Positions 25,485 to 38,601 of a stretch of DNA of 64,000 nucleotides are shown piece by piece. A model generated the notes under the pieces. It saw nothing but the letters and a program-made list of their open reading frames with translations. It made no database searches and was not told the origin of the DNA. How positions within the stretch are numbered: position 1 is the first letter of the stretch; every line of letters starts with the position of its first letter. Both the position numbers and the translations under genes were made by a program. This stretch comes from Alphaproteobacteria bacterium (GTDB lineage Bacteria; Pseudomonadota; Alphaproteobacteria; Bin95): NCBI GenBank assembly GCA_041687435.1, contig JAWLBX010000007.1, forward strand, positions 33,108 to 97,107. The letters run 5' to 3'.

Positions 25485-26507
25485 ATGAAATCGCGTTTGA
25501 TATGGATCGTTGCCGCCCTGCTGTTGGCCGCCGGTGCCGGCTGGTGGTTCTGGTTTGACGCCAAACCGTCGGTTACCGTTGCCACCATAACCCGCGGCAC
25601 CGCAGCGGAAATCGTCTATGCCACCGGCGTGGTCGAGCCGGCGCATTGGGCCAAGGTGACCACCGTCGTCGCCGGCCGGATCGTCGAAAGCTGCAATTGC
25701 GAAGGGTTGGATGTTCGTAAGGGCGACCTGCTTTTCCGTCTCGACGATACGGAAATGCGGGCACGCGCCGATGAAATTCGCGCACGTCTGGAATTGGCGG
25801 AAAAGGAACTGGCCCGCACCAGCGACCTGTTCGAGCGCGGGGTCCACACGCGCGAACGCTACGATCAGGCATTTACGGAGGTCGCAAAATTGCGCGCTAA
25901 TCTTGCCGCGGTTGAGAGCCAGGCTATCGATCTGGCAATTCGTGCACCGCTCGACGGCCAGGTACTGCGGATCGAGGGTGAAGTCGGCGAAGTCGCAATC
26001 CTGGGCGAGGGTCTCGCCTGGGTGGGGCGGCCCAAGCCGCTTCTGGTGATTGCCGAGGTGAACGAGGAAGATGTGCCGCGTGTGGCCATCGGCCAACAGG
26101 CCCTGCTCAAAGCCGATGCCTTCCCCAGCCAAGCCCTGCCTGCAGTCGTATCTTCCATCACCCCGATGGGCGACCCCGAGTTGAAAACCTATCGCGTCCG
26201 CCTCGCCCTACCAGAGGATACGCCGGTGCTGATCAACATGACGGTCGACGTCAATATCATCATCCGCACGATGGATGATGCCGTTCTGGCCCCGGCGCCC
26301 GCACTAATTAACGGCGCGCTGCAGGTGCTAACCGATAGCGACCGGATCGAGCGGCGCGCGGTCGAAACCGGCATTGCCGGGGCCGCACAGGTGCAAATCG
26401 TCAACGGCGCCAACCCGGGCGAACGAGTCGTCTCCCCTGCCCTCGATAGCCTAGCAGATGGTGACCGGGTGCAGGTGCAACGGGGAGCGGAGCCCGCAAG
26501 CCCGTGA
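25485..26507 (+). CDS. Periplasmic adaptor (HlyD/MFP family) of an ABC exporter
   Basis: An N-terminal TM (IWIVAALLLAAGAGWWFWF) is followed by barrel-sandwich, coiled-coil and beta-barrel pattern. Confidence 0.85.
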   Translation: MKSRLIWIVAALLLAAGAGWWFWFDAKPSVTVATITRGTAAEIVYATGVVEPAHWAKVTTVVAGRIVESCNCEGLDVRKGDLLFRLDDTEMRARADEIRARLELAEKELARTSDLFERGVHTRERYDQAFTEVAKLRANLAAVESQAIDLAIRAPLDGQVLRIEGEVGEVAILGEGLAWVGRPKPLLVIAEVNEEDVPRVAIGQQALLKADAFPSQALPAVVSSITPMGDPELKTYRVRLALPEDTPVLINMTVDVNIIIRTMDDAVLAPAPALINGALQVLTDSDRIERRAVETGIAGAAQVQIVNGANPGERVVSPALDSLADGDRVQVQRGAEPASP

Positions 26508-27742
26508 ACCTGCTGCTGGAGATCGCATTCACCCATATTTTGGGCCGCGGCCGCCAAACCATCGTCTCCATAGCCGGTGTTACCCTTGGCGTCGGATTTG
26601 CGATTGCCATGGCTGCGCTGATGCAAGGCAGTCAGGAGGACTTTGTTGGCAAACTGATTGATGCCATGCCACACGTCCAGATTACCGATGAACGCCGGCA
26701 GTTGCAGGCGCAGCCGGCGGATGAACAGTTCGATGCAGTGGCATGGTATGGATTGCGCCCACGCGATGACGTGCGCGGCATCCTGAACCCGGTTGCCACC
26801 ATTGCCGCCCTGGAAGGCTGGGTTCCCGGCATCATTTCCGCCGGCCTGAATGTGCAGGGCGTTGCCCGGTATGGCGGCACAGAGCGGGGCGTCAGCATCA
26901 TCGGGATCGACCCGGCCGACGAGGTACGCGTTTCGACCATCGCCGAGGATATGACGTGGGGCAGTCTCCAAGACCTAAACGCCACCTCTTTTTCCGCTAT
27001 CATCGGTGAACGCCTTGCCGAACGCTTGTCGGTCGCCCCCGGTGACAGCATCCAACTGATTGCGGCGGGCGGTGTCACCCGGCGGTTGAAGGTGGTCGGC
27101 CTGTTCCGGACAGGTATTGTCGGCACCGACGAAACCCGGATCTATACCCGCCTGCGCACAGCTCAAATTTTGGCCGGGCGTTTCAACGCCATCAACGATA
27201 TCCGGATTCGCCTGAAAGACCCCGATGCCGCCGCCGCGGTCGCGCGGCGGGCAGAGGCGATGTTCGGGTACAAATCGGTATCGTGGCAAGAGGCAAACGA
27301 GAGCCTTCTGGAAGCGTTCGAAATCCGCAATATCATCATGTACACCGTTGTTGCCGCGATCCTTCTGGTTGCCGGTTTCGGAGTGTTCAACATCGTCTCT
27401 ATCATCACGCACGAGAAGGCGCGCGATATCGCAATTTTGAAATCGCTGGGGTTCCGCAAGGGTGATATCCAGCTGATTTTTGTAACCGAGGGTGCGCTGA
27501 TGGGCGGGTTCGGTGGCGTTTGTGGTATGGCTTTGGGCTATGGCCTTACGCGGATGCTGGGCTCTGTCACGTTCGAGATGCGCCAAATGTCAGAGGTCAG
27601 CACCTTGCCGGTGACCTATGATCTCCTGCATTACGCAGTTGCGGTTTCACTGGCATTATTTACGGCTGGAATCGCCGGATATCTGCCCGCCCGCAAGGCC
27701 GCAAAGGGCAACCCGATCGACATTATCCGCGGGGCATCATGA
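26504..27742 (+). CDS. FtsX/MacB-type ABC transporter permease (LolC/E, DevC-like)
   Basis: 412 aa. TM1 is followed by a large periplasmic domain and a C-terminal three-TM FtsX domain. The GTG start overlaps the adaptor stop (GTGA). Confidence 0.85.
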   Translation: MNLLLEIAFTHILGRGRQTIVSIAGVTLGVGFAIAMAALMQGSQEDFVGKLIDAMPHVQITDERRQLQAQPADEQFDAVAWYGLRPRDDVRGILNPVATIAALEGWVPGIISAGLNVQGVARYGGTERGVSIIGIDPADEVRVSTIAEDMTWGSLQDLNATSFSAIIGERLAERLSVAPGDSIQLIAAGGVTRRLKVVGLFRTGIVGTDETRIYTRLRTAQILAGRFNAINDIRIRLKDPDAAAAVARRAEAMFGYKSVSWQEANESLLEAFEIRNIIMYTVVAAILLVAGFGVFNIVSIITHEKARDIAILKSLGFRKGDIQLIFVTEGALMGGFGGVCGMALGYGLTRMLGSVTFEMRQMSEVSTLPVTYDLLHYAVAVSLALFTAGIAGYLPARKAAKGNPIDIIRGAS

Positions 27743-28455
27743 TGAGGGTCGGCCCGTCTGCCTCCCTGGTTTCGGCCCGGTCCGTCACCCGCATCCTTAC
27801 GGAAACGGTACCGGTGACGCTTGTGGAGGATGTGACCCTCGAAATCGGCCGCGGCGAGTTTGTGGCAATCACCGGCCCATCCGGTTCTGGCAAATCCTCC
27901 CTGCTCTATCTCCTGGGCTTGCTGGACGCACCGACCAGTGGCGAAGTTTTGTTTGAGGACCGCGCGACGTCGATCCTGACGGAGGAGGAACGGGCCGAAA
28001 TCCGCTTATCCGGCATCGGTTTCGTCTTTCAGTTTCATTTCCTGTTGCCCGAATTCACCATCCACGAGAACGTGCAGATCCCGATGCGGCGGCTGGCCCG
28101 CTGGTCAAGAGCCGAGGCGCGAGAGCGAGCTGCGCATCTGCTGGACCGGCTTGGGCTGGGCGATCACCTGCACAAACGCCCAGACCAAATTTCCGGCGGA
28201 CAGCGCCAACGCGTGGCGGTGGCCCGTGCGCTCGCCAACGATCCACCACTGATCCTGGCTGACGAGCCGACAGGTTCGCTCGATTCCGTTTCGTCCGATC
28301 AGGTTTTTCAAATCCTGTCTGACATTGTCGCGACTGGTGAAAAAAGCATCATCGCCGTCACCCATGACCTGGATATGGCAGCGCGAATGCACCGCGGCAT
28401 TCATTTGGTGGATGGGCGGATCGTCCGGGATGAGGCTCAGACCGCGCCCGATTAG
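27739..28455 (+). CDS. ABC transporter ATP-binding protein (LolD/MacB/DevA type)
   Basis: Walker [10 protein letters not shown], signature [14 protein letters not shown], Walker [17 protein letters not shown] overlap with the permease. Confidence 0.92.
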
Positions 28456-28665: not shown

Positions 28666-28812
28666 TCAGAGGTTCAGATAGCGGAATTCCGCCGTCGGTT
28701 CGAACGACAGTGCCAGAATGCCTAGAAACAGTGCTGCGTACCAAAGCGCGCATAGCGCAATTGCCAGGGGCCGCGGCAGATGTTCGGACAGCAGACCGAA
28801 GATATTGTACAT
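28666..28812 (-). CDS. 48-aa single-TM microprotein with C-terminal F-x-Y motif (DltX-like candidate)
   Basis: The sequence is MYNIFGLLSEHLPRPLAIALCALWYAALFLGILALSFEPTAEFRYLNL. Its ATG shares one nucleotide with the MBOAT stop (minus strand reads TGATG at 28814..28810). It falls below the size cutoff as a separate ORF and is visible only as the tail of track ORF 28666..29055. Confidence 0.55.
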   Translation of the reverse strand: MYNIFGLLSEHLPRPLAIALCALWYAALFLGILALSFEPTAEFRYLNL

Positions 28813-29972
28813 CACAGCCACCAATACACGAAGATCGTGCCGTAAACATCCAGTACATCTGGAAAAGTTGGCTCGCGGACGATAACAAAGCTGAGCCAGA
28901 CAAAATGTACGGTCAGAAGAATACAGAAAGCATCCCGGAATGGCCGTAGCACCGGGTTCCGGATGGCAATGCCGCGCCGGTCCTGGAAATTGTTCACGGC
29001 CGCCCAAATCATGGTCGCAACGCCGTGAACGGCACCCCAGACTAGATAACGCCAACTCAATTCGTGCCAGACGCCAATAAATACCATAGTGCCAAAAATC
29101 GCGGCATACTGGTTTCGGGACATTGCAAAAACCAGCGAGAACACATGCTCACGGGCAAAACTGGTCAGTGAAATATGCCAGTTGCGCCAGAATTCGGAGA
29201 TGTTCTTGGCGAGGTAAGGCCAGTTGAAATTCTCCATAACCCTGTAGCCCAGCAGCAGCGCAAAGCCAATGGCCACGTCGGAAAAGCCTGAAAACTGGAA
29301 ATAAAGATTCAGGCCACGGATGACCACATCCAGATAGGTGGCGAGCGCCGCATTGGTTTCGTGTAATGCCGCCACATGCGACGCCAACACTCCTTCGATC
29401 AGGTAATTGCCCAGGATCACGATCTTGGCGTAGCCATAGAGAATGCGCTGTAATCCGAGTGAAATATTGCTGGCATCCCAGCGCTTGTATTTCAAGTCGT
29501 TAAAGAACGCCGGAAAACGATGGATTGGCCCGACGACAATCGTTGGCAGAAAGAATTGATAAAGAAAGAAATCTTTAAGGCGATGCGTCTCTAGCGTACC
29601 CTTGTACCGGTCAATGATATAACTCAGGAAGCGGATGGCATAATATGCCATTCCCAAAGGCATGACGAAATCACGAACAACCCCGGGCTCCATATCCATG
29701 CTGGGCAACATTGCTTTGAAGCCGAGCAGTATTGCAATGACCAGTCCGCCCGCCGCCATGGCCCGCCATCCGGCCAACGGATTGGCATTGCACAAGAAAT
29801 AGACGGCTACGGTCAATCCGGTCAGCGACACGGCCGATATGGGCGAGTACAGCGCCAGAAAGCCCAGCGTGATGACGCCCAGAAACACGTCCCGCCACGC
29901 CTTGGGCAGGATCCAGTAGACCGAAACCACGCCAAACAACCAGCCCAGCCATTCCACGGACAGAAAATGCAC
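28812..29972 (-). CDS. MBOAT-family membrane O-acyltransferase (DltB/AlgI-like)
   Basis: 386 aa and polytopic. Contains FWRNWHISLTSFAREHVF and GVWHELSWRYLVWGAVHG, the MBOAT conserved-His regions. GTG start 29972 is preceded by GGAGGG. Confidence 0.9.
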   Translation of the reverse strand: MHFLSVEWLGWLFGVVSVYWILPKAWRDVFLGVITLGFLALYSPISAVSLTGLTVAVYFLCNANPLAGWRAMAAGGLVIAILLGFKAMLPSMDMEPGVVRDFVMPLGMAYYAIRFLSYIIDRYKGTLETHRLKDFFLYQFFLPTIVVGPIHRFPAFFNDLKYKRWDASNISLGLQRILYGYAKIVILGNYLIEGVLASHVAALHETNAALATYLDVVIRGLNLYFQFSGFSDVAIGFALLLGYRVMENFNWPYLAKNISEFWRNWHISLTSFAREHVFSLVFAMSRNQYAAIFGTMVFIGVWHELSWRYLVWGAVHGVATMIWAAVNNFQDRRGIAIRNPVLRPFRDAFCILLTVHFVWLSFVIVREPTFPDVLDVYGTIFVYWWL

Positions 29973-30038: not shown

Positions 30039-30167
30039 TTAGATCGCCAAGCCCGGCAGGCTGATCCCCGCTAGCCACAGGCCGACGACCGCCACCCCAA
30101 CACCGCCTATCAGAAAGACGGTGAGGAACCATACGATCAGCGGTGGCGCCTGCGGTGGTTTCTTCAT
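30039..30167 (-). CDS. 42-aa single-TM microprotein between the adenylase-carrier and MBOAT genes
   Basis: I translated this by hand: MKKPPQAPPLIVWFLTVFLIGGVGVAVVGLWLAGISLPGLAI, ending in TAA. It is not in the ORF track because it is under 60 aa. The Shine-Dalgarno sequence is weak (GGA). Confidence 0.4.
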   Translation of the reverse strand: MKKPPQAPPLIVWFLTVFLIGGVGVAVVGLWLAGISLPGLAI

Positions 30168-30204: not shown

Positions 30205-32064
30205 TCAGCCAGCCGGCTTCATCTTCCGCTCGACCAGATCGACAACATCACTGATTTTGCTGACATTCATGATCTCGCGTGGCCGCAGCTTGATGGAGAA
30301 ACGTTCTTCGACGGCGGTCAGAAACTCGATATGCGCCAGCGACGTCCAGCCCGATAAAGTATCGGGATTGGATTGCAGCGTGACAGTCTCCGCCGGACAT
30401 TTGAAAAACTCGGCGGCCACCTGCGCGACACCGCTCAGAATATCCGAATTGTCGTTTGCCTGCGCGGAACTGGCATGAGCGTTCCGGAGTTCTTCCCGCA
30501 CCGCCTCGATCAAAACCTTGCCGGCCGGGCCGCGTGGCAGTTCGGTCATAAAATGGACGGTTCCGGGAATTTTCTCCCGCGCCAACCGCTCTGCACAGTG
30601 CGCGGCCACGTCGGCGACCGTGAGTGAGGGACCGTCAGGCACCTCTAGGCAACACGCAAGGCGCTCGCCCCAGATTGGGTCTGGCATGCCAAAGGTCACG
30701 GCATCCTGCACGCCGGGGATGGTGCGCAGGACGGACGTTACATCTTCCGGATAGACGTTGATGCCGCCGACAATGATGACATTCTTCTTGCGCCCGACGA
30801 TCCGGTAGAAGCCGTCTTCGTCTAACGACGCCAGATCGCCGGTGTGGAACCAACCGTTTTTCAGCACCTCCGCCGTTTCCACCGGGGCGCGGAAATAGCC
30901 GCGCATGACATGGGCGCCGCGCAGAACCAACTCGCCAACACTGCCTTGCGCAATGTCGTTGCCCTCATCATCGACAATGCGGGCCTCGCAGTCGATTGGC
31001 TTGCCGACGGTGCCGATCTTCCGGGTTTCCGGCGTTGGCCCACAATACAGCGCCTCGCAAACCGTTTCCGTCAGGCCATAAACGTTGACGACCTGCACGC
31101 CGTAGCCGTTTTCGATCCGCTCCCAAATGGCGGGGTCGAGGAAGGCTGCGGTCGAGATGATGAATTTGAAATCACCCGTGCGCAGGCAACCCCCGCACTC
31201 ATCGACCAGATTCCCCATCAGGCCGAGAATGGTCGGCACCGTGATAAAATGGGTAATTTCCAGCGTGTAGATGCTGCGAAGGACCGGCTCCAGCGTATCG
31301 ACACGCAACGGCTGCGGTCTGTGCAATGTAGCACCGGCACAGAATGCCAGCACCGCGCCGTGGGTCAGACCGTCCGTGTGGTGCATCGGCAACAGGTTGA
31401 GCAAGTTTACCTTCTCATCGAAACCGTAGTGCCGCACGAAGGTCTGTTCCTGAGCGAACAAATTCTTGTGCGTGATCTCGACACCTTTCGGCCGCGATGT
31501 CGTGCCGGAGGTGAACAGGATATATGCCAGCGCATCGTCGGTCAGGTCGCCAGGCAACTGCCCCTCTTCCAAACCGGAAAGGCATGCGGGGTAGGTCTCC
31601 GCCGCCGGGGCGCTTTGACGGCGGAAAAGACGTCCGATCCCCGCCTTGCTTTGCGTTTCCGTAGTGCCGCCATCGATGCGAACCGCCACATTCGGTGCAC
31701 CATCCGACTGATCCAGCGCATGCCGGGACAGGTAGGATGCATCCGCGAACAGCCCCTGTGCATCGGACGCACGCATCAGCGATTCGGCTTCCGATAACGG
31801 CGCGTGCGGGTCCAATACGATGGTGGTTAAGCCGAGGCGCAGGAACGACAGAAAGAGCATGATCAGCGAGCGATCATCCTCCGTGATCACAATCACTCTG
31901 TCGCCAGCCTTCAGGCCCAAATTGGAACACAGGGTCGCCGTTTTCCGCACGCCGGCGAAAAGCTCAGCATAGGCCAGTGGCCGCGGGCCCGCCAGCAGGG
32001 GCTTGCGGCGTGGCGTGGCCTGCTCAAGCCGCTCGAACGCGGCAATCCAAGGAGAAAGAGCCAT
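30205..32064 (-). CDS. Adenylate-forming ligase fused to a C-terminal acyl/aminoacyl carrier domain (DltA-DltC-like fusion)
   Basis: Adenylation core motifs: LFTSGTTSRPKG (A3), YGLTE (A5), GELVLRG (A6), WFHTGDLA (A7), GRKKNVIIVGGINVYPEDV (A8) and PRGPAGKV (A10). The C-terminal ~80 aa form a carrier domain with LSGWTSLAHIEFLTAVEERF, where Ser is at the phosphopantetheine position. Confidence 0.9.
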   Translation of the reverse strand: MALSPWIAAFERLEQATPRRKPLLAGPRPLAYAELFAGVRKTATLCSNLGLKAGDRVIVITEDDRSLIMLFLSFLRLGLTTIVLDPHAPLSEAESLMRASDAQGLFADASYLSRHALDQSDGAPNVAVRIDGGTTETQSKAGIGRLFRRQSAPAAETYPACLSGLEEGQLPGDLTDDALAYILFTSGTTSRPKGVEITHKNLFAQEQTFVRHYGFDEKVNLLNLLPMHHTDGLTHGAVLAFCAGATLHRPQPLRVDTLEPVLRSIYTLEITHFITVPTILGLMGNLVDECGGCLRTGDFKFIISTAAFLDPAIWERIENGYGVQVVNVYGLTETVCEALYCGPTPETRKIGTVGKPIDCEARIVDDEGNDIAQGSVGELVLRGAHVMRGYFRAPVETAEVLKNGWFHTGDLASLDEDGFYRIVGRKKNVIIVGGINVYPEDVTSVLRTIPGVQDAVTFGMPDPIWGERLACCLEVPDGPSLTVADVAAHCAERLAREKIPGTVHFMTELPRGPAGKVLIEAVREELRNAHASSAQANDNSDILSGVAQVAAEFFKCPAETVTLQSNPDTLSGWTSLAHIEFLTAVEERFSIKLRPREIMNVSKISDVVDLVERKMKPAG

Positions 32065-32088: not shown

Positions 32089-33180
32089 TTAGCCACAAGC
32101 GGCGCCGAACTTCGACCCGTTGCTCTCGATCACATCGGCAAGCCGGTCGCCGATGGCGGCGCCATAGGCAGCAGCGCCTTCAGGGGCAAAATGGTTGGAG
32201 TCGGCGAAGTAGGATGGTTTCGGCAGGATCAACTCCCACCACCGGATGACCGGAGTTTGATAGGTCTGACCGAACTCGGTCAACGCGGCATCGAAGCGCT
32301 GACGGGTATCGATGAGTCCTTCATACGACATGTAGGGCATGAAAAAGACATCGGTTTTTGCAGCCTCTTCAAACAAACGCGGGTCCAGTCCATCCCGCAG
32401 CCAGCCGGGGATGGACATGACGACCGGCAGGGCGCCCGCACCGATCACAACATCCCGCATCGCAGTCAGTTCGGCCGTATAGTCAGCGGTCAGGTCATAG
32501 CGACTGGCATCCAGCTTTCCGGCATTCGAATGGGCAGCGCGTTGCCGGCGAATGACCTCTGCATTCATTTCCAACTTGGCCCAAAAGCGGGAAACTTCCG
32601 CCAGCATTGACGGGGAATAGTGCGGGTCTCGGTGCAAGTTTGCGGCAATCGCCAAGTCGTCCAGCCGCGCGTTGAACCCGCCCGCCCATACAACGACAAG
32701 ATCGGGTTCAGTCTTCGCGACGTTGTGCTCGAAATAGGTGGTGGTTTGCGGCAGGCTGAACCCGGGAACGCCGGCGTTTAAAAAATCGAAACGGCAGTTC
32801 GGCAGGCGGTCCCTGGCGGCCGACATGGCCTGCGCCACCCAGGTCTCGCTATCGTCGGTTACGTAAGGATCCAGCGTGCTGGAGGTGCCAATAAACGCCA
32901 CCCGGATGCGCCCGGGCGGCTTGGGCATGTCCAATTCCTCACCCCGGAATCCTAAGCTGTTGAATTGCAACTTCCCAAAAGCCGCATTTGGCCGGGGAAT
33001 GCGCAAGTCGGTTTCCGGATCGATGAAAAAGGTCTCGGACTTTTCCACATCGGCCTGACCGCCGAATTGTCGCCATTGCTGCAGGAACAGTGCGACCTCA
33101 CCGGCAAGAACCCAGCCAAAAGCCAGAGCGGCAATGACCAGACCAGTCAGAATTTCCTTTTGCCGCAGGGTTAAAATCAA
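32089..33180 (-). CDS. Membrane-anchored SGNH/GDSL-type hydrolase/acyltransferase (DltD/AlgJ/PatB-like role)
   Basis: N-terminal TM (LTGLVIAALAFGWVLAGEVALFL). SGNH block I is VAFIGTSST, block III-like is LNAGVPG, and block V is FADSNHF (DxxH). TTG start at 33180. Confidence 0.75.
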   Translation of the reverse strand: MILTLRQKEILTGLVIAALAFGWVLAGEVALFLQQWRQFGGQADVEKSETFFIDPETDLRIPRPNAAFGKLQFNSLGFRGEELDMPKPPGRIRVAFIGTSSTLDPYVTDDSETWVAQAMSAARDRLPNCRFDFLNAGVPGFSLPQTTTYFEHNVAKTEPDLVVVWAGGFNARLDDLAIAANLHRDPHYSPSMLAEVSRFWAKLEMNAEVIRRQRAAHSNAGKLDASRYDLTADYTAELTAMRDVVIGAGALPVVMSIPGWLRDGLDPRLFEEAAKTDVFFMPYMSYEGLIDTRQRFDAALTEFGQTYQTPVIRWWELILPKPSYFADSNHFAPEGAAAYGAAIGDRLADVIESNGSKFGAACG

Positions 33181-33650: not shown

Positions 33651-33717
33651 CTTGCGCCCCCGCTCAAAAGGATGCACTAAAAGCCATGAACAAGCTTTCT
33701 GCCGGGAGACTGACAAA

Positions 33718-35526
33718 ATGTTGAATTCGGCTTCGACATTTTGCGCATGGATGGAACGCCACGCGACCGAACACCCGGATAGGGTAGCAATCGCGTCACT
33801 CGATCAACCGCCGCTTACTTATCGTGAGCTTTTCGCTGCTGCACAAGATTTACGCAAAGAGTTGCTGGCTGCGGGCGTGGGTGCGGATCAGCGTGTTGCG
33901 CTGGTCGTTCCTGATGGCGTGCAAATGCTGTATGGCATGATCGCAGTTGGCGCCACGACCCAGACTATTCTGACACCTGCCACCATGGCAGAAAATGAAT
34001 TTGCGGAGTTGTTACGGCGCGCATCCTGCGACTTGGCCATTATTCACGAAGCCTCACCAGAGAATTTCCGCCGTGCGGCGGCCAATTGCGGAACCCCGAT
34101 CTGGACCGTGCGTCACGCGCCGGATGCGCCGGCGGGACTTTGGCGCATTGTGGATGCCGAAAAGGCCCGTTCTGGCGCGCCGCCGCGAATCCCGGATGTC
34201 GATGACGTCGCCATCATCCTGAGTTCGTCCGGCACCACCGGGCAGGCGAAGATCGTGCCCCGTACCCATCGCAATGTCTGTCACTTTAGCGACGCAATCA
34301 TCAAGGACCTCAACCTAACGCCGGACGATATTACCATCATTGCCACCCCCAACCATCTGAGCATGGGAAGCCAGGCTACAGGGCTGTTGAGCCTGCGTAT
34401 GGGCGGGCTGGTGGTCTGCAACGATGGACCTTACGAACCAGCGAACTATCTGGCCCTATTTGAACGCTACAAACCCACCTTCATAACGGCCAGCCCCGTC
34501 TATTTCCGCAGCATCCTGGCAACCATCGACGCCAAGACGCCGCCCGTCGACGTTTCCTCAGTGCGGGCAATCCGAGCCAGTTCCGACCTGATGCCCGACG
34601 ACATCCGGCATGCGCTCGAGCAGAAATTCGGTGTCTCGGTCGACTCCAGCTATTCCTCCAGCGAGGCTTTGAGCATCGCAGTGCGCACCAGCGCCGATAA
34701 CGACCGCCCGCCAACCTATCTGGGCCGCATCACATCGGGTTCTGTCCGCATTCTGGACGATAATGGAAACCAGGTGCCCCAGGGCGAGGTGGGCGAAATT
34801 GCCGTTTCAGACCCCGCGGTGTCACCCTACTATATCGATGATGAGGAACTGACCGCTCGCGCCTTCAAGGATGGCTGCTATCGCATGGGCGATCTGGGCT
34901 TTATCGATGCCGAGGGCGGATTGCACTTCGTCAGCCGCAAGGCCGACATCATCAACCGCGGAGGCTACAAGATCGCGCCGAGCGAGGTGGAGCGCGCGCT
35001 GAGCGATCACCCAGCGATCGCGCAGTGCAGCGTTTTCGGAGTACCGCACCGCCGCCTGGGCGAGGATATCGCCGTGGCGGTCGTGCCGAAGCTGGGCCAG
35101 ACGCTAGACGAGGCGATGATGCGGCAACATCTGGCAAGCCGGCTTGGTCCCGGCAAGTGGCCGCGGCGCCTGTTTTTGGTCGACGACCTACCTCGCAATA
35201 CCGTCGGCAAGGTTTTGCGGCGCGAATTGACGGCAAGGTTTTGCGGCGAGGCTGCCCAAGAGGCTGCCAGCACTGGCCCGGCCGCCTGGACCTCGCCCGA
35301 AGTCTCCTTGGTTATTGGCCTGTGGTCCTACATTTTGGAGGTTCCCACAGTCGGCGCAGATACCAGTTTCATCGAGGCCGGCGGCGATTCACTCCAGGCC
35401 GGCATTCTTCAGGCAGAAACATCGGCATGGTTCGATTTGAAGCTGGAGCCGGACTTCATTCTTTCGCCAGACTGCACACCGCGCGCGATTGCCGAGCGGC
35501 TGCAGGCGAGCAACGCATCTGCTTGA
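33718..35526 (+). CDS. NRPS-like adenylation-thiolation (A-T) didomain protein
   Basis: Adenylation motifs: ILSSSGTTGQAKIV (A3), YRMGDLG (A7), SRKADIINRGGYKIAPSEVE (A8) and PRNTVGKVLR (A10). The C-terminal PCP has FIEAGGDSLQAG. ATG 33718 (MLNSASTF) follows GGGAGA. Confidence 0.9.
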   Translation: MLNSASTFCAWMERHATEHPDRVAIASLDQPPLTYRELFAAAQDLRKELLAAGVGADQRVALVVPDGVQMLYGMIAVGATTQTILTPATMAENEFAELLRRASCDLAIIHEASPENFRRAAANCGTPIWTVRHAPDAPAGLWRIVDAEKARSGAPPRIPDVDDVAIILSSSGTTGQAKIVPRTHRNVCHFSDAIIKDLNLTPDDITIIATPNHLSMGSQATGLLSLRMGGLVVCNDGPYEPANYLALFERYKPTFITASPVYFRSILATIDAKTPPVDVSSVRAIRASSDLMPDDIRHALEQKFGVSVDSSYSSSEALSIAVRTSADNDRPPTYLGRITSGSVRILDDNGNQVPQGEVGEIAVSDPAVSPYYIDDEELTARAFKDGCYRMGDLGFIDAEGGLHFVSRKADIINRGGYKIAPSEVERALSDHPAIAQCSVFGVPHRRLGEDIAVAVVPKLGQTLDEAMMRQHLASRLGPGKWPRRLFLVDDLPRNTVGKVLRRELTARFCGEAAQEAASTGPAAWTSPEVSLVIGLWSYILEVPTVGADTSFIEAGGDSLQAGILQAETSAWFDLKLEPDFILSPDCTPRAIAERLQASNASA

Positions 35527-35663
35527 GTTTGATCAACAAGGCCCCCGTTCTGGTATAGTAGACTACCGTTGGATTTCCGTGCTGGCGTTTGATTGCGCCG
35601 GCTAATCTCGACGATAGCGCGATCCCAAGCGCCCGCTTTGCAACCGAAAATACAGGTACGAAG

Positions 35664-37199
35664 ATGGCCGCCTCAACCAATGATAATATCCGCTGGCCCG
35701 ACCCGATTACCGCGGCCGTTGTCCACCTGTTCGCCTTCCTGCTGGAAAAGCCTGTGCCCAAGCCCGATGAAAGTTTTTCGGCGCTGGGCGGCGATGCGGC
35801 CTTGGCCGAGCGGCTGCGGCAGGCAATTGCCGGCTCGTTCAGGGTAAGCTTGCAGGAGCACGCGCTGGCTGACCTGACATTCACCCCCGCAACAATCGCC
35901 GGCGAAATCATGGCGGCGAAAGCGGTAGAAACGGAACAGTCCGGCCCCACGGTCGCCCGCACTCGGGACTGGCTGCCCGCCCTGCCCTCGCAAGCCGGCC
36001 TTTATTCCGTCGATCGCGTGACCCGCGGCGAGGCTCGGCCGACCGTTACCGGCGCCCTGATCGTAGAAGGCAACTTCGACCGCGTCCGGCTGGACGCTGC
36101 GGTTCAGCAGGCGATGATGCGTCACGACGGCCTGCGCCTGCGCTTTGAAACCCAGGACCGGCAAGTCATGATCCGGCCAGAAAAAGACGCGCCCGGTATC
36201 GAGGATTTCAGCGCATCCGCAAACTCGGAAGCCGACCTGATCCGTGCAGCCGCTAGCCATGCGGCCGAAACGCTGGACCTGGATCAGGGGCGCGGCGTCC
36301 GCTGGCTGCTGTGCGAGCAGGGCAGCGGACAACAAGCCCTTATCGTCGTGGCTCACCACGCCGTCGCCGACGCCATGTCGAAATCGTTTCTGTTACGCGA
36401 GGTTGGCGAGACTTATGCAGCGGGCGGCTCACTCAACAGCATGCCGCTTGCCCCATCCTTCATGGCCATCGCGGCGGAACGGGCTGCCATGCTGGCCAGC
36501 CCCAAGGCGGCACAGGACGAGGCCTATTGGCGGCAATACCTGAACCCGCTGCCAGGCGATCTGGCCGTTCCAGGTATGATCGAGGAAAGCGAGGGCGCGG
36601 AGTTTGAGCGCCGGGTGATTGCCTTTGATTTGGACACAGCGGCCGTCGAACGGTTGGTTGCAAATGCGGCAGCGCAATCAGCCACGCCCTTTATTGCCTT
36701 CGCCCGCGTCATGGCCCGCTGCTTTGCGGCAGAGCGGGATGGCGTTGTCTCCGTCCCGATCAGCAACCGCGACCAGCCAGGCCGGCAGAATGCCATTGGC
36801 TGCCTGATGCAGACCGTGCCCCTGCGCCTGTCCGGCCGGGACGGCGCACCCTACCCGCGGCTGCGGGAGGAGGTGTCGCAAATGCTTTCCCACTCCGCGC
36901 TGTCCGTGGAGGAATTGCTAACCCGTGGCGTCCTCGCCCGCAAAGGCCTGTTCGAGGCGCCGATTGGTGTGCAGTTCCAGCTGCGCCGCGCGGAATCTGA
37001 AGTGATTGTCGACCGGGCGGACCTGCGCCTGCGGCGGGTCGATCCGGTTCTGGGGATCAATAACCTGCTGCCATTGTCCATCGATATCAAACGCGGCGAA
37101 ACCACCACAATGTTCTGCGATTACGACCCCGGGCTGGTTGACCCGTCCGGGCTCGACTCCATGATTGCAGCTGTCAACGCAGAGCTTTCCAAGGCTTAG
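35664..37199 (+). CDS. Condensation-domain protein with N-terminal degenerate carrier-like domain
   Basis: The N-terminus is PCP-like (FSALGGDAALAERLRQAI...TPATIAGEIM) but has Ala (codon 35796-35798) where the phosphopantetheinyl Ser belongs. A C domain with HHAVADAMS (HHxxxD) follows. Confidence 0.85.
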   Translation: MAASTNDNIRWPDPITAAVVHLFAFLLEKPVPKPDESFSALGGDAALAERLRQAIAGSFRVSLQEHALADLTFTPATIAGEIMAAKAVETEQSGPTVARTRDWLPALPSQAGLYSVDRVTRGEARPTVTGALIVEGNFDRVRLDAAVQQAMMRHDGLRLRFETQDRQVMIRPEKDAPGIEDFSASANSEADLIRAAASHAAETLDLDQGRGVRWLLCEQGSGQQALIVVAHHAVADAMSKSFLLREVGETYAAGGSLNSMPLAPSFMAIAAERAAMLASPKAAQDEAYWRQYLNPLPGDLAVPGMIEESEGAEFERRVIAFDLDTAAVERLVANAAAQSATPFIAFARVMARCFAAERDGVVSVPISNRDQPGRQNAIGCLMQTVPLRLSGRDGAPYPRLREEVSQMLSHSALSVEELLTRGVLARKGLFEAPIGVQFQLRRAESEVIVDRADLRLRRVDPVLGINNLLPLSIDIKRGETTTMFCDYDPGLVDPSGLDSMIAAVNAELSKA

Positions 37200-37338
37200 A
37201 ACCCTACCGCAACAGTTGCACAAACGCCGGTGCGCCTCTCACAGCAAGACGAGGCATTCTGTCTGCCTTTCGGGAAAATACTGGACAGACCGGGTACAGA
37301 CGCGGTCGAATAGAGGACCTCCTGCTTCCGGGGCCCCT

Positions 37339-38601
37339 ATGAAACCGCAAATTCTATCGACATTGCCGCACTATACGCGTGCAACGTTCCTGTCTGACCT
37401 GATTGCCGGCCTGACGGTTGCCATGGTCGCGCTGCCGCTCAGTCTCGCCATCGCCATCGCCTCCGGCGCCGATCCGGCCAAGGGTTTGGTCACGGCCATT
37501 GTTGCCGGCTTTCTCATATCCCTGCTTGGCGGCAGCCGGGTGCAGATCGGCGGACCAACCGGCGCCTTTATCGTCGTCGTTTTCGGAGTCATCGCCCAGC
37601 ACGGGTATGACGGGCTGGTCATGGCGACTTTCATGGCTGGTATCATCTTGGTGATCGCCGGTTACATCCGTGCCGGTGCCTTGATCCAATTCGTGCCCGA
37701 AGCGGTGATCAATGGCTTCACGATCGGTATCGCCGTCATAATCGCCACCAGCCAGCTGAAGGATTTCTTTGGCTTGAGCATGGCTTCAGTACCGGCGGAT
37801 TTCCTGGAGAAGGTGCCTGCGCTTTGGTCCGCCGGCGCGACGCTGAGCCTGCCAGCGCTCGGCATAGGCCTCACGACAATGGTGGCGATCGTGGCGCTGC
37901 GGCGGATGTTTCCGCGCTTTCCGGGCCTGATCGTTGCAGTCGCCGCCACCTCCGGAGCAGCGGTCCTGCTAAGCTTGCCGGTGGATACGATCTTTTCGCG
38001 CTTTGGCGCGCTGCCGGATACGCTGCCGATGCCCGCACTGCCGGATATCAGCGTCGAACGGTTCGTCGAGCTGCTGCCATCCGCCTTCATCATCGCATTC
38101 CTGGCAGGTGTCGAATCCCTGCTTTCCGCCATGGTCGCGGACCGGATGATCGAACATACCCACCGCCCGAACGCGGAGGTGCTGGCTCAAGGCTATGCCA
38201 ACATCGCTTCCGCCCTGTTCGGCGGCTTGCCGGCAACCGGTGCCATTGCGCGCACAGCCACGAACGTGCGGGCGGGCGGAAAAACGCCGGTTGCGGGACT
38301 GATCCATGCCCTGGTCGTGCTGGTGGTGATGCTGGTAGCCGCCGACCTGGCTGGCTATCTTGCCCTTCCTGCATTGGCCGGGCTGCTGATGCTGACTGCC
38401 TGGAACATGAGCGAACCGCACAAATGGCGCAGTTATATGCGGGCTCGCCCCTCTGACCGGATGCTGCTGATCCTGACCCTGGTGCTGACAGTTGTCGCCG
38501 ATCTGACGGTCGCCATCGGCGTCGGGGTTGCCGTCGGCCTCGCGATACGCCTGCGCCGCCGCCATGTGCCGCCAGCCGACTGGAGGACCCCGGACCGATA
38601 G
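37339..38601 (+). CDS. SulP-family anion transporter, short form without a STAS domain
   Basis: SulP core is present (FLSDLIAGLTVAMVALPLSLAIAIASG..., GGSRVQIGGPTGAF). The protein is ~420 aa from ATG 37339 and ends directly after the last TM (RLRRRHVPPADWRTPDR). Confidence 0.85.
   Translation: MKPQILSTLPHYTRATFLSDLIAGLTVAMVALPLSLAIAIASGADPAKGLVTAIVAGFLISLLGGSRVQIGGPTGAFIVVVFGVIAQHGYDGLVMATFMAGIILVIAGYIRAGALIQFVPEAVINGFTIGIAVIIATSQLKDFFGLSMASVPADFLEKVPALWSAGATLSLPALGIGLTTMVAIVALRRMFPRFPGLIVAVAATSGAAVLLSLPVDTIFSRFGALPDTLPMPALPDISVERFVELLPSAFIIAFLAGVESLLSAMVADRMIEHTHRPNAEVLAQGYANIASALFGGLPATGAIARTATNVRAGGKTPVAGLIHALVVLVVMLVAADLAGYLALPALAGLLMLTAWNMSEPHKWRSYMRARPSDRMLLILTLVLTVVADLTVAIGVGVAVGLAIRLRRRHVPPADWRTPDR

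Follow-up and report, generated by a model that had tools for sequence, protein, structure and literature searches.

A stretch of 64,000 nucleotides (nt) from an alphaproteobacterial genome of GTDB lineage Bin95 (GenBank assembly GCA_041687435.1, contig JAWLBX010000007.1, positions 33,108 to 97,107 of the forward strand; the whole of it is termed here the window) contains, immediately 3' of a gene for a short DltB-like acyltransferase of the MBOAT family, a gene encoding a 48-amino acid (aa) microprotein with one predicted transmembrane (TM) helix and a tyrosine-containing C-terminal hexapeptide. We report that this is a genuine gene under strong purifying selection, and that its product is probably a trans-acting acyl shuttle: a single-pass inner-membrane protein, with its N terminus in the cytoplasm and its C terminus in the periplasm, serving an envelope-acylation module of five or six components. 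This reading is built on the reality of the gene and the selection acting on it, a near-invariant motif, the synteny of the module, and the complementary distribution of separate microproteins and of motifs carried in cis by the MBOAT.

The precedent lies in the Dlt pathway, where the invariant Tyr of the DltX motif FXYXXF carries D-alanine (D-Ala) from DltB to DltD, and acyl-Tyr intermediates have been described on the FXYXXF motif of both DltX and PatA (PMC12148441). According to the published view only Dlt uses a separate microprotein, other MBOAT/SGNH pathways carrying the Tyr motif on the MBOAT itself (PMC12148441), and the literature we searched yielded no description of a DltX-like microprotein in those other pathways. 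A preliminary description of the window had given the DltX motif and its Tyr shuttle role correctly (PMC12148441; the Bacillus thuringiensis protein ends STFIYNEF, PMC5541007), and had proposed a Tyr-ester shuttle in a Gram-negative MBOAT pathway. The proposal is supported by the motif, the module and the complementarity described below; the acylation itself we infer. The features of the microprotein gene are as follows.

28666..28812 (including the stop codon), minus strand: coding sequence of the Tyr-motif microprotein, 48 aa (open reading frame (ORF) list, AlphaFold2, orthologs)
28669..28686, minus strand: codons for F43-R-Y45-L-N-L48, C-terminal hexapeptide and putative acyl-shuttle motif (sequence and family)
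28810..28814, minus strand: TGATG, overlap of the MBOAT stop and the microprotein start (sequence; same junction in the related loci L082 and L083-L085)
28818..28822, minus strand: GGTGG, a Shine-Dalgarno (SD)-like element 5 nt 5' of the microprotein ATG (direct sequence reading)

The translation of this ORF is MYNIFGLLSEHLPRPLAIALCALWYAALFLGILALSFEPTAEFRYLNL, with Tyr45 encoded by TAT at 28680-28678 on the minus strand. The MBOAT gene ends ...TGG TGG CTG TGA, the A at 28812 being common to its TGA stop and the microprotein ATG, an overlap that may couple translation of the microprotein to that of the MBOAT; the GGTGG element is made of the terminal Trp codons (TGG TGG) of the MBOAT gene. Purine runs of SD-like character also precede the orthologous starts in L006, L008, L010 and L011, as judged by inspection, and promoter and terminator scans returned sites no more commonly than in shuffled sequence. 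In the AlphaFold2 prediction, made with the family alignment, residues 4-11 form a short helix, residues 14-36 a TM helix modelled with confidence and residues 37-48 an unstructured tail, the mean predicted local distance difference test score being 77; an N-in/C-out topology is predicted, the N-terminal segment of family members carrying 2.1 Lys plus Arg residues per protein and their C-terminal tail being net acidic. The overlap, the 48-residue product, its F-R-Y-L-N-L end and the single TM helix followed by a 12-residue tail are thus all as first described. No Pfam or NCBIfam model matched the window microprotein at E <= 1. Its earlier designation as unannotated holds for the exact peptide, which is absent from a collection of 5.8 billion proteins, but not for its orthologs, which are called as genes elsewhere, although only as "hypothetical protein".

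An ORF of such size is by itself unremarkable in DNA of 61% G+C, and the window contains 732 stop-delimited ORFs of at least 30 aa. A TM segment together with a C-terminal hexapeptide of the form [F/L]-x-Y-x-x-hydrophobic occurs in only two of these, the microprotein and the MBOAT. It had therefore to be considered that the ORF is a chance open frame, or a frameshifted remnant of a longer MBOAT C terminus, and is not separately expressed: high-GC DNA yields spurious frames (98 ORFs of at least 40 aa overlap the 10-kb stretch in question), a longer in-frame ORF (28666..29055) overlaps the MBOAT gene, and the MBOAT itself happens to end F-V-Y-W-W-L. Comparison among genomes speaks strongly to the contrary. 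With the MBOAT as query, the GTDB representative genomes yielded 11 orthologous loci (L001-L011; 40-47% identity), with hosts among the Alphaproteobacteria (Oceaniradius, Roseitalea, Maricaulis, and metagenome-assembled genomes of Azospirillaceae and Rhodobacterales) and the Gammaproteobacteria (Paraglaciecola, Pseudomonadales), and Nitrosomonas. In all 11 an ORF of 45-46 aa lies directly 3' of the MBOAT gene, separated from the MBOAT stop by 1-15 untranslated nt; ten of the 11 ORFs begin Met-Tyr, and all end hydrophobic-x-Y-x-x-X. The equivalent ORF also follows the MBOAT gene in four close metagenomic relatives (L082-L085). Marine metagenomes supplied the relatives L083-L086, which share about 80-84% nucleotide identity and full synteny with the window; a 48-aa gene with the TGATG junction is called in L083-L085, and L086 ends before the MBOAT gene. 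Conservation in related genomes, which the preliminary description had named as the check on its proposal, was therefore found for frame, length, position after the MBOAT gene and terminal Tyr, but for the exact stop/start overlap only in L082-L085.

Between the window and L083 the ratio of nonsynonymous to synonymous substitution (omega, by the Nei-Gojobori method) is 0.08 for the microprotein at a synonymous divergence (dS) of 0.98, and 0.05 for the adjoining MBOAT at a dS of 0.96; other ortholog pairs gave microprotein omega values of 0.10 (L001/L002) and 0.36 (L006/L007). Because the microprotein is present at 11 of 11 orthologous loci, has an omega of 0.08 and belongs to a family in which Tyr occupies position -4 in 253 of 258 members, it is more than a chance frame. 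Further evidence against such a frame is the retention of the Met-Tyr start, length and stop across alpha-, beta- and gammaproteobacteria, the variable spacers between MBOAT gene and ORF, the SD-like elements that the ORF has of its own, and the independent calling of 291 family clusters as genes. Nor is the terminal Tyr of the MBOAT kept in its orthologs. The MBOAT C terminus, I-F-V-Y-W-W-L (28815-28832, minus strand), fits the hexapeptide pattern and was considered as a cis motif, then rejected: orthologs have T, L, V, G or F at the position of the Tyr, and the L082 protein ends LLSWWL. With that Tyr not conserved, the terminal match looks like a coincidence. We regard a chance or remnant frame as effectively refuted by these comparisons, and give it almost no weight.

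The microprotein typifies a large family. Profile searches of the 5.8-billion-protein collection retrieved 117 members, and an exhaustive HMMER search of 1.84 billion cluster representatives (E <= 0.001) returned at least 291 clusters at 50% identity; the 150 clusters listed are all standalone proteins of 33-63 aa. No member has a Pfam domain, and every member named by a source is a "hypothetical protein". Of 258 retrieved sequences, about 87% have a length of exactly 45 aa and nearly all others one of 44-49 aa; their shared block is F-E-P-Q-A-[E/D]-[F/L]-[R/K]-Y-x-x-hydrophobic. The exact terminus [F/L]-x-Y-x-x-hydrophobic, with Tyr at -4, is found in 253, where position -6 is F in 221 and L in 32; the last residue in the family is most often L (140), followed by I (35), Y (33), F (11), W (11) and others. 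Of the five exceptions, two place Tyr at -3 and one places it at -5; a fourth continues by read-through past FRYLML, and the last, P0002, is taken up below. F-x-Y is thus retained in four of the five, shifted by one residue or extended by read-through.

A separate line of evidence came from a survey of 80 MBOAT loci, 76 of which have a delimitable MBOAT ORF. In 49 of the 76 the MBOAT, mostly of 450-510 aa, ends hydrophobic-x-Y-x-x-hydrophobic, carrying the motif in cis, and at none of these 49 loci does a same-strand small TM ORF bear the motif. The remaining 27 MBOATs, mostly of 377-430 aa, are without a cis motif, and at 24 of their loci such a small ORF is present. The complementarity (0/49 versus 24/27) is highly significant (Fisher p = 8e-17). 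Three motif-less loci depart from this pattern: L012, which is cut 234 nt past the MBOAT gene; L062, whose MBOAT ends in the variant cis motif GIYGQF; and L014, for which no reason is evident. The orthologous MBOATs conform, having no conserved cis motif and in every case a microprotein. Beyond the orthologs, a small TM ORF stands beside a short motif-less MBOAT in L013, L015-L020, L022-L025, L032, L048 and L052, loci of Bacteroidota, Bacillota, Planctomycetota, Binatia, Limisphaerales and other Pseudomonadota. The non-proteobacterial microproteins of these split loci end FIYQNF, FVYQGF, FFYANF or FIYTEF, and none of eight split microproteins scanned passes the Pfam DltX model (best score 13.5 bits versus a 25-bit cutoff). 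Sampled neighbours of split loci include DltD-like SGNH proteins (L016, L018, L022), standalone carrier proteins (L020, L052), an adenylase (L018) and a class-II aminoacyl-tRNA synthetase-like ligase (L052). We tentatively advance, as a generalization that could well fail, that every short DltB-type MBOAT, whatever its bacterial phylum, is as a rule served by a trans-acting Tyr-shuttle microprotein, and that a second microprotein, described below, is also needed in the proteobacterial non-D-Ala pathway.

Upstream of the microprotein on the same strand, the window encodes the proposed partners.

28812..29972, minus strand: short DltB-like MBOAT, 386 aa (Pfam MBOAT, 1.3e-18)
30205..32064, minus strand: adenylase with fused carrier domain (AMP-binding, AMP-binding_C and PP-binding), 619 aa (Pfam)
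32089..33180, minus strand: membrane-anchored SGNH/GDSL-type protein with N-terminal TM anchor, 363 aa (alignments, profile)

The MBOAT scores 139.5 bits on the NCBIfam model LTA_dltB, under its 375-bit cutoff, and has as its best relatives in the PDB the DltB structures 6BUG and 8JEM (E about 1e-24). Its conserved His266 (WRNWHISL) and His303 (GVWHE) both align with conserved His residues of DltB 6BUG, and, unlike bacterial MBOATs that depend on acyl-CoA, it has neither additional C-terminal helices nor a conserved cis motif. No DltA model appears among the top 25 NCBIfam matches of the adenylase, every one of which is to a fatty-acid, aryl-acid, malonyl or related acyl-CoA ligase family; judged by these matches, the enzyme is FadD/acyl-CoA-ligase-like, not DltA-like. 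Adenylase and carrier are syntenic in L003, L005-L007, L009, L010 and L082-L085, and in L001 and L002 their matches are separate, about 700-750 nt apart. The SGNH protein, for which a periplasmic location is predicted, matches Pfam Lipase_GDSL_2 below cutoff (4.5e-5) and has no Pfam match to DltD (PF04914). Ortholog alignments show invariant Ser100 (block I), Asp327 and His330 (block V), Cys129 and Cys362, and in profile comparisons with the PDB the protein matches the GDSL protein 6HFZ (1.3e-5) and, more weakly, the SGNH domains of OatA and PatB. Adenylase, carrier, MBOAT, microprotein and SGNH protein are syntenic wherever an orthologous locus is long enough to show them. In function the neighbouring genes correspond to DltA, DltC, DltB and DltD, as judged by domain matches and synteny. 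The module appears to follow the logic of Dlt (A, C, B, X, D) with components from different adenylase and SGNH families; by these comparisons it is not itself a Dlt system, its adenylase falling outside the DltA-type ligases and its SGNH protein outside the DltD family.

From these components a pathway may be proposed in which the published biochemistry of DltX and PatA is the model for the acylation of Tyr, the assembly of a complex and the direction of transfer. The FadD-like adenylase would activate a carboxylic acid, probably not D-alanine, and load it onto the fused phosphopantetheinyl carrier domain; the short DltB-like MBOAT, by way of His303, would acylate the Tyr45 hydroxyl, with its funnel as the conduit; the flexible tail would then swing, bringing the acyl-Tyr ester to Ser100 of the periplasmic, membrane-anchored SGNH protein; and the latter would hand the acyl group to a periplasmic or outer-envelope acceptor. 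The acyl group is probably not D-Ala because of the family to which the adenylase belongs.

The same conservation could reflect a different role: the microprotein, though real, would then contribute to the structure or assembly of an MBOAT-SGNH complex, for instance as a membrane tether or funnel plug, its Tyr never acylated and transfer proceeding directly to the SGNH protein or the acceptor. Conservation and synteny show the protein and its tail to be important but say nothing of their chemistry; sequence homology to DltX is lacking; and small structural subunits do seem to exist in the module, since a second microprotein without a Tyr motif is also conserved there. A purely structural role accords poorly, however, with a family whose single invariant residue is a Tyr at fixed distance from a free C terminus, with the occurrence of motif-bearing microproteins where the MBOAT is without a cis motif and not where one is present, and with the biochemistry of DltX and PatA, the two systems tested, in which this Tyr carries the acyl group (PMC12148441). 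We consider it unlikely, and favour the acyl shuttle.

How closely the proposed shuttle is related to DltX is a separate matter. DltX of B. thuringiensis (MERLKEIWSRPLTQWVAKTVYYLAILFALLWLYGFHDTNTSTFIYNEF) is, like the window peptide, 48 aa long with Tyr45 (PMC5541007), so that F and Y lie at equal distances from the C terminus in the two proteins, as the preliminary description had observed. Both kinds of microprotein are about 45-48 aa in length with a single TM helix in N-in/C-out orientation (predicted for ours); in both the final six residues open with an aromatic or hydrophobic side chain (-6), close with a hydrophobic one and have Tyr invariably at -4; and both have as partners a motif-less short MBOAT, an adenylase-loaded carrier and a membrane-anchored SGNH protein. 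They differ in the tail itself (...FIYNEF in DltX, F-E-P-Q-A-E-F-R-Y-L-x-L as the family consensus), in gene order (the microprotein gene lies 3' of the MBOAT gene, dltX ahead of the adenylase gene dltA) and in their hosts (Gram-positive for Dlt, diderm Pseudomonadota for the microprotein); the module further departs from Dlt in its FadD-like adenylase with fused carrier, its non-DltD SGNH protein and an extra upstream microprotein.

Several observations weigh against a DltX-like shuttle and are gathered here. None of 114 family members matches the Pfam DltX model PF12459 at E <= 10, the B. thuringiensis protein scoring 75.7 bits as a positive control, and hhalign comparison of the family profile with the literature-derived DltX sequence gave a probability of 0.7%. 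About 8 residues separate the TM helix from the Tyr in the family, versus about 12 in DltX; most members end in Leu, Ile or Tyr, not the Phe of DltX; and position -6 is Leu in about 13%. The family member P0002 (L081 820-948; 81% identical) stops at ...EPTAE, before the Tyr motif. L081, from sample ERZ27309148, is a single metagenome contig of 1,075 nt that diverges abruptly at this point, the DNA downstream being unrelated to the window and to L083, and the truncated end could be that of a pseudogene, a rearrangement or an assembly chimera. In favour of the shuttle, when the family was aligned by hhalign with the other split microproteins (DltX included) and with the last 55 residues of the 49 fused MBOATs, F-x-Y fell in register in both cases, with scores of 20.4 (40% probability) and 18.9 (29% probability) that exceed the maxima from 200 column-shuffled templates (14.8 and 12.9) and those from reversed templates (about 10-11), a column-shuffle null that is lenient for proteins consisting of a TM helix plus tail. 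For comparison, the other split microproteins align with the fused MBOAT C termini at 95.7% probability. A profile search of the PDB returned only generic TM-helix matches. The family's similarity to other shuttles is therefore weak, and, the null being lenient for proteins of this build, may reflect either remote homology or convergence.

Membership of the DltX family was rejected, since Pfam, NCBIfam, hhalign and PDB profile searches gave nothing significant. The preliminary wording, "homologous or analogous" to DltX, survives in part: the microprotein would work like DltX, but homology is not established (0/114; 0.7%), and analogous or very remotely homologous is what the data appear to allow. 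The alternative that it is a true, highly diverged DltX homolog, in a diverged Dlt system that D-alanylates a Gram-negative envelope component as proposed for Dickeya and Pectobacterium, draws on the length of 48 aa and Tyr45 shared with B. thuringiensis DltX, on the best matches of the MBOAT being DltB, on the weak in-register similarity to a split microprotein set that includes DltX, and on the report that DltX of Gram-negative species has the same topology with no sequence similarity (PMC5541007). Against it stand the absence of any PF12459 match among the 114 members and of a DltA model among the 25 top adenylase matches, an SGNH protein with no DltD Pfam match although DltD-like matches occur in other split loci, and a microprotein gene placed after the MBOAT gene instead of before dltA. 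The dlt genes of Dickeya and Pectobacterium are comparable in representing a carrier-dependent MBOAT pathway of the Gram-negative envelope, but they encode recognizable DltA, DltB and DltD, whereas the present module has other adenylase and SGNH families and another gene order, and its hosts are mostly marine alpha-, beta- and gammaproteobacteria rather than soft-rot enterobacteria. We judge a diverged Dlt system to be improbable, and more so than a purely structural subunit.

PatA-type MBOATs offer the other instructive comparison for the proposed shuttle. PatA, and by inference AlgI, WssH and PatA1/2, has the hydrophobic-x-Y-x-x-hydrophobic sequence at its extreme C terminus after a peripheral and a TM helix, and passes the acyl group to an SGNH partner, features shared (the last as proposed) with the microprotein, whose family profile aligns with these proteins in register (18.9). 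PatA-type enzymes, however, take acetyl-CoA as donor and carry the motif as part of the MBOAT chain, on a pair of additional TM helices, whereas in the module described here the motif is on a separate gene product and the donor would be a carrier protein.

The second microprotein and the genes surrounding the module are listed below.

30039..30167, minus strand: second conserved microprotein, 42 aa from an internal ATG (gap inspection, omega, homologs)
L003 2987-3910, L005 5088-5990 and L082 4926-5837: sulfotransferase-family genes (Pfam Sulfotransfer_3 in L082)
33652-37199, plus strand: second adenylase-carrier didomain (624 aa) and standalone condensation-domain protein (536 aa), then SulP
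37165-38601, window: SulP sulfate permease
25485-28455, plus strand: HlyD-type periplasmic adaptor, MacB-type permease and ABC ATPase (tripartite efflux pump)

The second microprotein (MKKPPQAPPLIVWFLTVFLIGGVGVAVVGLWLAGISLPGLAI, beginning MKKPPQAPPLIVWFLTV) lies in an open frame that reaches 30194. Its single TM helix comes after an [A/T]-P-x-x-[V/T]-W motif, and there is no Tyr tail. Encoded between carrier and MBOAT in 11 of 13 loci, with omega values of 0.11 and 0.35, it has 22 database homologs, all unnamed or "hypothetical protein", and genes of 42-43 aa are called in close relatives. Dlt has no counterpart of it.

A sulfotransferase-family gene (PRSGTT P-loop) occurs in or next to the module in three of 13 loci, and in L003 and L005 occupies the usual place of the second microprotein; the acceptor or acyl group may sometimes be sulfated. 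Since it is present in three of 13 loci and absent from the window, this gene was rejected as a core part and is regarded as accessory. Two further sets of genes flank the module in the window. The adenylase-carrier didomain and the condensation-domain protein, a pair resembling nonribosomal peptide synthetase components, are divergent from the module, are kept in L083-L086 and were not found in distant orthologous loci; in this lineage they might take part in making or modifying the acyl donor. The efflux pump genes converge on the 3' end of the microprotein gene and are kept in L083-L085 but not in distant orthologs; such a pump fits a diderm host and could export a modified product. Being kept in close relatives but not in distant orthologous loci, the condensation-domain protein, the adenylase-carrier didomain, SulP and the MacAB genes were not counted as core components.

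Through these comparisons we define a large, sequence-distinct family of microproteins with a DltX-type motif in Gram-negative bacteria, tied to a carrier-dependent pathway other than Dlt, and correct the published generalization that a separate microprotein is found only in Dlt (PMC12148441). Across the sampled loci a short MBOAT with a trans-acting microprotein and a long MBOAT with a cis motif appear as two alternative solutions, which provides a simple rule for finding overlooked microprotein genes beside short MBOATs, and the second conserved microprotein becomes a candidate for a further subunit. The module, present in cultured Oceaniradius stylonematis StC1 (L006) and Roseitalea sp. MMSF_3546 (L007), points to an undescribed envelope acylation in marine proteobacteria. 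Should the broader generalization advanced above prove true, Tyr-shuttle microproteins would be no peculiarity of Gram-positive Dlt systems, and the present family would serve an undescribed envelope modification by a group other than D-Ala.

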